From: Prevotella sp.
GTDB taxonomy: Bacteria; Bacillota; Clostridia; Lachnospirales; Lachnospiraceae
Direction: 5' to 3'
DNA length: 64,000 nt
Assembly (NCBI GenBank): GCA_963644495.1
Contig: CAVIPV010000001.1
Coordinates: 23,764-87,763, forward strand
The notes beneath the pieces were generated by a model that saw only the letters and a program-made list of their open reading frames with translations, did not search any database and was not told where the DNA came from. Numbering within the stretch: the stretch's first letter is position 1; each line of letters begins with the position of its first letter. The position numbers and the translations under genes are program-made. Positions 3,619 through 55,365 of this stretch are shown here, piece by piece.

Positions 3619-3655
3619 ATTATAACTGTGCATGTGGGACAAGTGTAGGACAAAA
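3619..3655 (-). promoter_or_regulatory. Regulon promoter copy 1: TGTCC direct repeat plus -10 TATAAT
   Basis: Minus strand TTTTGTCCTACACTTGTCCCACA-N8-TATAAT, upstream of HD / STAS-kinase / kinase-like orphan. Confidence 0.8.
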
Positions 3656-3675
3656 CTGAAAAATTCATGTAAAAC

Positions 3676-6600
3676 CTACCGGTCCCACACCGTCCTTTTA
3701 TCTTTAGCAGCTTTCACCATGGAATCCAGTGTATTCTGGTAGTCAATCTCTGCACTGTCATCGGTGTGCTGCCGGATGTATTTCTCCCGCTCCTGCTTTG
3801 CCAGTGCCTCATCCTGAGACTTTTTCACCTTTTCGATCCAGCCGTCCTCTACCTTCCCCGGATCCGGAGTGGTTTCAGTTGCAGCCGCTGTGGTCTCCTG
3901 AGTCTTTACATACTCACTAAGGGTATCCTTGATCAGCCGGTCCATGGCGGTCCGGGTCTCACAATGCAGGAACTGTTCCTCTAACTTGGTCTTCTGCTCC
4001 GGGGTAGGCTCGATCTTTACCAGCTTCCAGAAGGTTTCCAGAGCTGTCTTATAGGCATTGTAAATGTCATAGGTTTCCTTTGCATAGGCTTCGATCTTGT
4101 TTTCCTTGCTGGTTTTCGGATCGAACTGATACTCCTTGCATACTTCCTCCCAGCCGTCCGGCTGCTTCAGGAAACGCTCCTGCATATCCAGATCCACCTT
4201 GAGACGCTCCTTAAGAGTAAGAAGCAGCTTTTCTTCTTCGCTGACATCCAGTCCATGGTAGATCTTTGCCTTCATGATATCCTCAAATCCCGCATCCTGT
4301 TCTCTGGTTTTAAATCCGATGGCTGTATAAGTTCCGTCTGCCATTTTCCAGGAAGCATAATACTGATTCGGGTCAATGACCATGCTCTTATTCTTCTGGG
4401 GATCGTAGACGATGATACCGCTTTGTAAGGTGGTAAAACGGTAGTCATCCCCTTCTTCTTCATAGTCGATGGCATTTCTTCCGGTCAGTGTTGCCTTCTG
4501 CCCTACGTCTGTACTGGTCTTATTTCCGTTTGAATCTGTATATTCCACCTTTGTGGTGGTGCCGATCTCGGCCTCCGGCGTCACCGTCATGGTATAAGGG
4601 ATCTTAATAGGATCACTGAACTGATAACCGGTGCCTGATCCGGAACCGGTCTGTTTGCACCGGTAGACCCAGACAGCCTGGTCACAGGTTACTGCCACAA
4701 CCCATTCTGTTCCGTTTCCGGATTTTTCAGAAAGAACCTTCATACCGCTGCTTAGGTCTGAGATCTTGATGATGCCGTGGTTGCTGTTGGTAGAATCCGG
4801 CATCCAGATGGTCGTCACCGGGTCCTCCTCCTGACCGGACTTGACCTGATAGTATACCGTATCGCCCTCAGGAGTCTGTACCAGATTCTTGCCATCCTCC
4901 AGCTCCATCGTATCAAACCGGTCCATGGTGGCTTCATTATCCATGAGGGTGATCTCTACGCTTTCTATAAAGTCAGCTGTTTCCTCTGTCTCATTTCCAT
5001 CCTTATCGGTAAGGGTTCTGGTTGCTGTCCTGTAGTTCACCTTGTAATCCTGCAGCTTTGCCGCATTGTTACGGTAGATAATAGACCCCATACCTACATC
5101 TGAAGAGGATTTTGAAGCTGTCTGGTCATAGACGGCAAAAAGAATATTGCCTGTTTTATTGTATTCATCCAACAGGTACTGGTAATTTGCACCGGTTACA
5201 GCTACCGGTCTGGCAATATTTTTCATCAGGATCTGATAGGAGTTTTTCAATGGGTTATCATCGTCCTTCTTCTCAAGCTCCACCGCCGTGCCTTCTTTTT
5301 TCGATCCGTTTTTTCCGGCCGGAACGGTACGATTCACGGTGTCGCTCCAGGTGTCTCCGCTCAGATCCTGATAAACCTTTTTCCAGTTGTAATCATCCTG
5401 CTGCTCAGTATTCGCTTCACTGTACAGGTCAAAGTAATTCTGGAAAAGGCGGCTGAACAGACCCATGTTGGTATCATTTTCAAGTATATCGTTCTGACGT
5501 ACCCGGACAGCACAAAGACGATAATTATAGTTGACTGTTTCTCCCGTAACAATTTTGAACCAGGAAAGATAATCCGGGCATACCTCTAAGGTTTCTTCAT
5601 ACGTAAGATTCGAGGATTCCCAGATATAGACCTGCTGCGGTACTACAAGATTGGGAGAACCGAACCGGGTTCCCGTACCGGTACTGTCCGATGCATACAT
5701 ACGGAAGCAGCAGACCAGAGAATAAGGGACCTCATCTTCCTTCGTGGAATCCAGAGAAACATTCAGCTCGATTAAGAGCGTAGAGCTTCCGTTCATGGAA
5801 ATACTGGCCACCGAATAGGTAAGCTTGCTGGTATCCACCTTTTCCTGTATGGTCTTCTGATCATCTGTTCCCGTCCAGTTGAACTTACGGTTAAAATAAT
5901 CCAGAATACCGGCAAAGATCATAGAAGAAGCATCCAGCTGTTTTACGGCTTTTCCGTTGCCGTCCAACAGGGTATATTTCATATCATACATACTGTAGTA
6001 AAGGTATTCAGTTCCATAGCGTCTGTTTTTGTCCTTTACCTTGCCGCAAAACAGACGCTGATGTCCCGGCAGATAGCTCTGATACAGCTTACGCACAGAG
6101 GATGCATCCGAATCATCATAGGCTGCACTGGTATCTCTTCCTAAACGTACATCCAGAACGGCATATTTACGGGTAACGGTGTTGTAGCGGATCAGACCGT
6201 AAACCTCCCAGTTGGACTTGGGTTTATAGGTACTGTCCTCTTCCTTTCCCGCCGGGATGTCCCAGTTGATATGCTCCCCCTCCGGTGCCGTACCGGTAAT
6301 ACTTAAACCGCTTAGAAGATCAAGGGTATTTTTTCCGTAAAATACCGTTTCATAGCTGTAGATCACCGTATTTCCGTTGTCTAAAAGGTCAAGAATGATA
6401 AATTCCTTCAGATCTTCTGCCTTTGTTGAGTGGTAATCCGGTATGAAAAAGGCCTGTGTTCCTTCTACCTTCCAAAGCTCTGCGTGATCCTCTGTCTGCT
6501 TTGCAGTCATGGCACCGTTTACATCCGAGGGCAGATCCTTTGCATACTCCCCATCCAGTGTGATCGCCGCATTTTCTCCTGTCATTTTTTCAATATCGTA

Positions 6601-55237: not shown

Positions 55238-55328
55238 ATATATCCTCCTTTTCCCTCGGTGTGCATCCTTGTGATCGATGTACCCGGTCCTGTGTGGTTA
55301 AGTTGCTTTCTTTTGTCTTTCTACTTAG

Positions 55329-55365
55329 ATTATATATGACGCAGTGGGACAAATGTAGGACAAAA
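55329..55365 (-). promoter_or_regulatory. Regulon promoter copy 8
   Basis: TTTTGTCCTACATTTGTCCCACT-N8-TATAAT. Confidence 0.8.

Follow-up and report, generated by a model that had tools for sequence, protein, structure and literature searches.

Introduction

In the PhoB/pho box system, a regulator that joins a REC domain to a winged helix recognizes tandem 11-bp direct repeats, which replace the -35 element beside a normal -10 element. In VirA/VirG with its vir box in Agrobacterium, and in the control of Legionella Dot/Icm effectors by PmrA and CpxR, one two-component regulator and a short box co-activate a type IV secretion system (T4SS) and substrate genes at dispersed sites. The targets of SARP regulators have direct repeats at a distance of 11 or 22 bp from each other, and 8 bp lie between the 3' repeat and the -10 element. 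For the afs box, which is 22 bp long, the centre is at -29.5 and the upstream repeat (-40 to -30) overlaps a poor -35 element; two SARP protomers bind side by side and give sigma region 4 an alternative docking surface (PMC10936776). Here we analyse a direct-repeat promoter element, called the box below, found in a stretch of 64,000 nucleotides (the window; positions 23764-87763 of contig C1) of a Lachnospiraceae genome (GCA_963644495.1, G000 below; 3.01 Mb, 263 contigs, 91% complete). The window covers part of a genomic island with genes for a T4SS, a two-component system and large orphan proteins.

The promoter class in which SARP- or PhoB-type tandem repeats replace the -35 element is already known. 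In the literature searched, what appears to be undescribed is this class in Clostridia, a SARP-like domain as the output of a response regulator that is paired with a LytS-type kinase, and the control of a T4SS island together with dispersed orphan genes. The present system resembles AfsR and its afs box, ActII-ORF4, DnrI, RedD and EmbR in its 11-bp repeats, in the 8 bp to the -10 element, in a poor or absent -35 element and in the C-terminal fold of the island response regulator, which is nearest to AfsR and EmbR. It differs in its host, which belongs to the Clostridia and is not an actinomycete, in the position of the domain behind a phospho-acceptor REC paired with a membrane histidine kinase, in a BTA-like stub of only ~45 residues, in the half-site TGTCCyACA with a strong sigma-A type -10 element that carries TGn, and in its targets, which lie on a T4SS island and not in antibiotic gene clusters. 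PhoB has in common with it the REC and winged helix, the tandem 11-bp repeats in the place of the -35 element and a match of the DNA-binding domain at E 2.5e-3; here, however, Trans_reg_C stays below its cut-off, the REC is of the BtsR/LytR type, the kinase is of family PF06580 and SARP is the better structural match. By analogy, the regulatory logic would be that of VirG, PmrA and CpxR, which come from Gram-negative bacteria and whose boxes are unrelated in sequence and position; in the present system, secretion and substrates are proposed.

Taking the evidence together, we consider it probable that the box promoters are activator-dependent sigma-A promoters, which form one genomic-island regulon under the island response regulator.

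Results and discussion

Architecture of the box promoters

The pattern GGACAANTGTRGGACA, whose + strand positions serve as site coordinates, matches the window exactly eight times, always on the + strand (3637, 24617, 33031, 35901, 36269, 39085, 43854 and 55347; promoters P1 to P8 in this order, see Table 1). No match was obtained in 100 dinucleotide shuffles of the window, and allowing two mismatches in the window gave no extra site. Since all long open reading frames (ORFs) of the window are on the minus strand, each site precedes the start of a gene. The coding-strand reading of each is TGTCCyACAnT and then TGTCC plus 6 nt, which makes a 22-nt box, followed by 6 nt and a TAnnnT hexamer; the box is thus composed of two 11-bp direct repeats, the second of which continues after TGTCC as a weaker yAyAtg. 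A sequence-only reading of the window had reported these eight sites in a single orientation upstream of inferred starts, an invariant spacing, the -10 hexamers with TGn on the five that deviate from consensus, and no TTGACA-like -35 element; we recovered the sites, hexamers and TGn exactly as listed there, the three TATAAT promoters being those that lack TGn, and the other two claims also hold on the larger samples described below.

We extended the set to 47 sites by adding those of two other genomes (15 each in G011 and G029) to the 17 of G000; in this set, box index 0-15 is fixed by the search pattern and the remaining positions are free to vary. All 47 sites can be written as a 9-mer, N2, a 9-mer, N8 and TAnnnT, with a repeat period of 11 bp, and the T, A and T of the -10 element occupy index 28, 29 and 33 in every one of them. 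A G at -14, the mark of TGn, was observed in 38 of the 47. Within G000, 13 of the 17 sites have TGn, and three of the four sites that lack it have a perfect TATAAT, so that the two parts of the -10 region compensate for each other. Index 39 is a pyrimidine in 46/47 sites and index 40 a purine in 46/47, which makes a pyrimidine-purine step 7 nt below the -10 element. As this is where a start is expected, the box would be placed at -40 to -19, with its centre at -29.5. The SARP box geometry, as given in PMC10936776, is found to the base in 47/47 sites, a match at the level of sequence. An A-rich tract and a T-tract stand upstream of the box in these sites. We also observed that +2 to +12 of all 47 promoters (for example, window 24581-24591) is purine-rich and GAAAGAAAAG-like, with 60-70% A per position.

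The -35 position reads CACATT, and the TTGACA-like hexamer that a canonical sigma-70/sigma-A promoter has at this place, 16-18 bp upstream, was not found, while the -10 element is present in 47/47 sites. We scanned 24001-44000 for sigma-70 promoters with at least four of six -35 matches; 25 sites were returned versus 27 ± 5.2 in shuffles, which is the chance rate, and none of the six motif promoters of this region was picked up, which indicates that they have no -35-like hexamer.

Around the 17 sites of G000, the flanks are 26-39% identical, which is the background level, and the -10 element is 78% identical; with flanks at background, the sites are not copies of a repeated element. In nine putative orthologous site pairs, the box and the -10 element are 100% identical and the segment from -80 to -61 is 37% identical, a comparison that is only indicative since the pairs were picked by the likeness of their variable parts.

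Genome-wide distribution and genes driven

Genome-wide, the pattern TGTCCYACANTTGTCC gave 17 exact sites and its reversed-pattern control none. With a position weight matrix built from positions -3 to +33 of the sites, the same 17 scored 37-52 bits and the next-best site 11.7 bits. Of these, 14 fall within the initial 80 kb of C1. The other three are on C34, C51 and C145, one per contig, and each drives a lone orphan (934, 630 and 665 aa) amid PBP1, LysR, ABC-transporter and ATP-grasp genes. The sequence-only reading had predicted that such a scan would reveal more orphans, and the nine sites beyond the window, with these three lone orphans amid housekeeping genes, bear this out; likewise, the element that it had not seen directly upstream of any housekeeping gene stands there in 0/17 cases. 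Nor is the motif common or indifferent to gene class, the outcome that had been named as fatal to a regulon: it is rare and sharply delimited, and it has a strong bias towards T4SS, signalling and large orphan genes.

For 16 of the 17 sites, the distance from the start of the site to the chosen start codon of an ORF of at least 100 aa is 58-125 nt, and there is mostly a GGAGG-type ribosome-binding site; the 17th, at 36269, is the one that drives a 79-aa ORF. For site 24617, a better downstream start is at 24517, and for site 3637 a later start is possible, as judged by eye. Left of the window, two divergent, back-to-back box pairs (G000 C1:3501-3542 and C1:8494-8553, locus L018), in which the boxes are 10 and 28 nt apart, drive divergent orphan genes.

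The driven set is made of the T4SS operon, an operon with partner-switching and two-component genes, and ~13 large orphan proteins. Apart from the targets of the promoters at 24617, 33031 and 3637, the large driven proteins have no significant Pfam family, and the driven genes are mostly unrelated to each other. Four directly driven proteins form family A, with weak PI3_PI4_kinase or Fam20C matches; the atlas neighbours of one of them are 'PI3K/PI4K catalytic domain' clusters (0.95) and LepB_N clusters (0.91). Three others, family B, have a common C-terminal domain. We did not find a C-terminal domain common to all driven proteins, and a hidden Markov model of the family-B C-terminus matched only its three members among 6108 ORFs.

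The box with its fixed -10 phasing offers a handle, usable from sequence alone, for listing in full the output that one signalling pathway has in an uncultured gut anaerobe, and this output includes candidate secreted proteins that are invisible to family searches.

A response regulator with a SARP-like output domain

Within the motif-controlled operons, the response regulator gene is the only one with a DNA-binding domain, and no other homologue of it was found in G000 at E <= 1e-20. The regulator belongs to a family with 6407 homologues at E <= 1e-3. Its REC domain scores 70.9 bits in Pfam, and the canonical REC residues do not vary among 30 homologues. LytTR regulators such as AlgR and AgrA read repeats of 9 bp, ~12 bp apart; here the repeat period is 11 bp, LytTR had no match in the regulator at E <= 10, and we do not place the protein in that family.

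The C-terminal 145 residues were modelled with a predicted local distance difference test score (pLDDT) of 90 and a predicted template modelling score (pTM) of 0.85; in the model, only ~3 short helices follow the wing. When this model was compared with the PDB by Foldseek, six matches had E <= 1e-3 and all of them were SARPs, namely AfsR activation complexes (8hvr, E 3.4e-6; 8k60) and EmbR, over 116-170 aligned columns and with template modelling (TM) scores up to 0.75, the value for EmbR. PhoB-type domains came next in the list, from E 2.5e-3. The full-length regulator model matches the OmpR/PhoB regulators DrrB, PhoP, PrrA and RpaA, and when the full-length alignment was used for a profile search, the REC domain dominated the result. 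The SARP-type architecture of actinomycete antibiotic clusters would extend to Clostridia, where it would appear in a large and unstudied family of response regulators, as their output domain.

In the literature on REC-SARP regulators in Clostridia, nothing relevant was found among the matches listed; TGTCCAACAAATGTCC had 0 occurrences, and the 9-mers matched only primers among the matches listed. The part of PMC9380558 available to us, on C. difficile CD1688, has no bearing on this regulator family.

The box follows the regulator family

We compared the distribution of the box with that of the regulator. The box is present in three of 37 genomes of the genus (G000, G011 and G029, with the copy numbers given above) and in 0/24 genomes of other families of the order; a full-length regulator at >=90% identity is encoded in these same three genomes only, the best match elsewhere in the genus being 39% identical. 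In a fourth genome, which holds locus L059 and encodes a regulator with 72% identity, 13 exact boxes and two near-variants are spread over 12 contigs. The synteny of P2, which sits 16 nt past the regulator stop codon and heads the ~21-kb T4SS operon, is kept in G011, G029 and L059.

More distant homologues were collected as 77 loci (1.07 Mb) with regulators 37-52% identical, the close loci L058 and L059 being left out. We counted 18 matches to TGTCC-N6-TGTCC, spread over 12 loci, and 12 to TGTCC-N7-TGTCC, spread over eight; in the same 77 loci, other spacings gave 0-5 matches and 29 permuted 5-mers 0-7. About half of these TGTCC repeats are within 400 bp of the regulator gene. A -10 hexamer (TAnnnT) was observed at a fixed offset, N12 after forward TGTCC repeats (four times) and N8 after reverse GGACA repeats (TTTGTTGGACA twice; nine times), with 0-2 cases at other offsets; both arrangements reduce to a 9-mer (TGTnnnACA), N2, a 9-mer, N8 and the -10 element, as in the window. 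In addition, the sequence of helix 3 goes with the type of box: it is (Q/K)DY-x-(S/N)-KI in 4/4 regulators of loci with TGTCC(C/T) boxes and QKQ-(L/V)-DV in 7/7 regulators of loci with TGTTGGACA boxes.

Among the 79 related loci used for neighbour counts, a PF06580 kinase homologue adjoins the regulator in 62 and VirD4 is present in three. With the kinase common and VirD4 rare, the box tracks the regulator family and not the T4SS.

The second box type (TTTGTTGGACA twice, N8, -10 element) stands at L103, L105, L113, L126, L131, L135 and L136, beside regulators with helix 3 QKQLDV; at L136 it faces the regulator gene itself, and L113 also has a VirD4 that is 61% identical to that of the window. 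Two further repeats were also noted: in the genome of L063 (G063), C116:256-448 holds a tandem array of TGTCCGGCTTTTGTCC-type repeats with 11-bp and ~48-59-bp steps, and at G000 C19:27411, on the minus strand, TGTCCGACAAATGTCCGACA is a tandem TGTCC repeat of the other type, which has no fixed -10 element.

Proposed mechanism and alternatives

From these comparisons and the structural model, the island response regulator is likely to be the activator that binds the box. We propose that the membrane histidine kinase would phosphorylate the adjacent response regulator, which would then bind both repeats, most likely as a side-by-side dimer. The repeats, at about -40 to -19, would take the place of the -35 element, next to a usually TG-extended TAnnnT -10 element, and the bound regulator may recruit or adapt sigma-A RNA polymerase as SARPs and PhoB do. 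The output of the regulon would comprise the T4SS operon, the regulator's own operon with partner-switching genes, which would constitute a positive feedback, and the ~13 orphan proteins, all together. Indeed, since the operon of P3 contains the kinase and regulator genes, the regulator is probably autoregulated.

Several points weigh against this proposal. In Pfam, Trans_reg_C (PF00486) reaches 18 bits versus a cut-off of 26.2 (E 0.003), below what would place the regulator in the OmpR/PhoB family, and BTAD was not detected in it at E <= 10. A single-sequence PDB search with the C-terminal domain gave nothing significant (EmbR E 0.4, DrrB E 1.3). The nearest REC domains are those of BtsR and LytR, and PF06580 kinases are usually paired with LytTR or AraC regulators. 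TGTCC-N6-TGTCC is lacking in 65 of the 77 distant-homologue loci; the covariation of helix and box spans essentially two clades, and therefore counts as close to one supporting event and not eleven; and co-occurrence with the box is equally true of every island gene, not of the regulator alone. Moreover, a sequencing-run search with 32800-39300 listed no RNA run.

Extended -10 promoters can fire without a -35 element. Because TG-extended or perfect -10 elements can act in this way, the promoters are possibly constitutive and the box is possibly the operator of a repressor, with the response regulator or another protein at -40 to -19 shutting off strong promoters. The frequency of TGn (38/47 sites, with a perfect TATAAT in most of the others) and the overlap of the box with the position of RNA polymerase agree with such repression. 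However, the orientation of the box and its single-base phasing to the -10 element are invariant in 47/47 sites, and the same fixed offset recurs in the distant loci; this invariance argues for a contact between the bound protein and RNA polymerase, which simple occlusion would not need. As, in addition, the position of the box is identical to that of SARP activator boxes and the closest folds of the regulator are activators, we regard an operator as quite unlikely.

The promoters could also be activator-dependent, or depend on a special factor, with the box being read by a protein other than the response regulator: an unrecognised island protein, a divergent sigma-like factor freed by partner-switching, or a regulator encoded outside the assembled contigs. 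STAS, RsbW-like and SpoIIE/PP2C genes control a sigma factor in other systems, and the island has all three; many island proteins have no family assignment, and as the genome is 91% complete, a regulator encoded elsewhere is possible. On the other hand, none of the 12 Sigma70_r2 and 18 Sigma70_r4 profile matches of this genome is on C1, so that the dedicated sigma factor gene that an alternative-sigma system under partner switching would have was not found on the island contig. The -10 element has TGn and is of sigma-A type, and among the island proteins a fold that binds direct repeats was found in the regulator only. TGTCC repeats also go with the regulator family where the T4SS is absent, and the recognition helix covaries with the type of box. 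We consider a different reader of the box to be rather improbable. Finally, since some driven genes are paralogous (family A with its four members, family B with three), the motif might be a non-regulatory relic spread by paralogue duplication or by a mobile element. This is scarcely credible, as the flanks are at background identity and most driven genes are unrelated, the box stands 77-125 nt ahead of a start codon that has a strong ribosome-binding site in every case bar one small-ORF site, and the -10 element and spacing are conserved in four genomes. We thus retain activation by the island response regulator as the explanation that best accounts for the box. The sequence-only reading had already suggested that the promoters depend on an activator, and the analysis supports this interpretation.

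The T4SS and its candidate substrates

The T4SS resembles those of Mycoplasma and Firmicutes integrative and conjugative elements (ICEs): VirD4 is of the CD1115 family, two multi-span proteins are Mbov_0396-like, the pilin-like protein corresponds to Mbov_0395, and VirB4 matches NF045975 (Mbov_0397-like) with 545 bits, just below the model cut-off of 590. It differs from them in this sub-cut-off VirB4, in its place under a regulon of 17 promoters with many orphans, and in its relaxase: the two relaxase families that were searched, PF03432 and PF02486, had no match in the 91%-complete G000. Neither an integrase nor a relaxase family, both of which accompany the T4SS in an ICE, was recognized in the ORFs of C1 that were scanned. 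Given the OB-fold protein encoded in the operon and a relaxase search limited to PF03432 and PF02486, DNA transfer is possible.

Thirteen large orphans have no signal peptide and end in lysine-rich disordered tails (...KGKG, ...KKGGL, ...MGK), which are rich in G, K, P and M; examples in the window are encoded at 33063-33212, 36308-36457 and 52874-53023. Three more island proteins (885, 1141 and 575 aa), which the box promoters do not drive directly, end in the same type of tail. When both features of such tails were applied as a filter, 27 of the 1390 ORFs of at least 300 aa passed, 11 of which come from the island or from C51; this filter was set after looking at the data and is exploratory. 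Judging from their sequences, the lysine-rich tails may be a T4SS export signal. From their co-regulation with the T4SS, their lack of signal peptides and their tails, we infer that the ~13 orphans are candidate T4SS substrates. If so, they would represent a regulated effector repertoire in a Gram-positive commensal, of which no description was found in the literature searched; for T4SS effectors of Lachnospiraceae or Firmicutes, nothing relevant was found among the matches listed.

A wider scenario, which we put forward tentatively as possible but not probable, is that an ICE-type T4SS, for which no relaxase was detected, has turned into a protein-delivery system in Gram-positive gut Clostridia. 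A dedicated two-component switch of REC-SARP-like type would co-induce the secretion machine along with a partner-switching checkpoint and with no fewer than 13 lysine-tailed substrates that have no signal peptide; several of these substrates would be PI3/PI4-kinase-like, with a feature-level likeness to Legionella LepB, and some of their genes would be scattered like those of Gram-negative effectors. In Clostridia, response regulators with the SARP mechanism as their output would then be widespread.

Organization of the window

The promoters and the genes that they precede are given in Table 1.

Table 1. Box promoters P1 to P8 and associated genes, in window coordinates
Feature	Coordinates	Strand	Details
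P1	3619-3652	-	box 3631-3652 (TGTCCTACACT TGTCCCACATG); -10 TATAAT 3619-3624; predicted start near 3612
P1 targets			HD-domain gene 2994-3581; STAS-APH fusion 1817-3007; kinase-like gene (~1140 aa) running off the left window edge
T4SS operon	3676-24517	-	~21 kb, under P2; gene order: signal-peptide cell-wall-binding protein, OB-fold protein, STAS, CAAX protease, VirD4 (19367-21667), 645-aa protein, two VirB6-like transmembrane proteins (16083-17396, 13410-16067), VirB4 (10576-13311), MltF/SBP-like protein, 106-aa and 352-aa proteins, pilin-like protein (7961-8302), cell-wall-binding protein, 1031-aa protein
P2	24599-24632	-	box 24611-24632; -10 TATAAT 24599-24604; predicted start 24592
Response regulator	24648-25481	-	277 aa; REC (D19/D20, D65, T93, K113), C-terminal SARP-like winged helix, short BTA-like stub
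Histidine kinase	25442-26743	-	~5 transmembrane helices, PF06580 His_kinase, HATPase_c; end overlaps regulator gene start
P3 operon, remainder	26783-32956	-	503-aa orphan, MatE-RsbW-like fusion, formyltransferase-like, membrane SpoIIE/PP2C phosphatase, RsbW-like kinase
P3	33013-33046	-	-10 TGcTATACT; heads operon 24648-32956, kinase and response regulator last
P4	35883-35916	-	-10 TGaTATACT; drives 921-aa PI3/PI4-kinase-like orphan 33063-35828
P5	36251-36284	-	-10 TGtTAAAAT; drives 79-aa ORF 35977-36216
P6	39067-39100	-	-10 TGaTAGGAT; drives 895-aa charged orphan 36308-38995
P7	43836-43869	-	-10 TGgTATACT; drives 523-aa orphan 42216-43787, then GGDEF, AIM24 and SBF genes down to 39109
P8	55329-55362	-	-10 TATAAT; drives 787-aa orphan 52874-55237 (family B) and 575-aa orphan 51106-52833

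The starts and stops of the P3 operon genes overlap. A terminator-like stem at 28792-28813 was considered as an operon break and rejected, as it lies within the SpoIIE coding region, in a transmembrane helix, and the SpoIIE ATG overlaps the preceding stop. A Rfam gathering scan of the window gave 0 matches.

A partner-switching set stands in all its parts under box promoters (1817-3007, 22819-23106, 26783-28853 and 29713-31545) without a sigma factor; its parts are two STAS proteins, one of which is a fusion to an APH-type kinase, two RsbW-like kinases, one of which is the MatE fusion, and one membrane PP2C.

The product of the 79-aa ORF under P5 is acidic and has no family match, and its own box promoter is directly upstream of the box promoter P4; it could be a chaperone or adaptor.

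Between two box-driven units, 44023-51109 contains genes for a PucR-type regulator (49913-51109), an amino-acid ABC transporter, a class-III aminotransferase and a Fe-alcohol dehydrogenase. These transport and catabolic genes trail P8 in the same orientation with short gaps, and there is a 4-nt overlap between the PucR gene and the stop of the 575-aa orphan; read-through or co-transcription from the promoter at 55347 is therefore possible.

Finally, genes for cyclic di-GMP turnover are found in or beside the island (GGDEF 40862-42019, GGDEF-EAL 57312-59219 and GGDEF 59281-60933), one of them downstream of the promoter at 43854.

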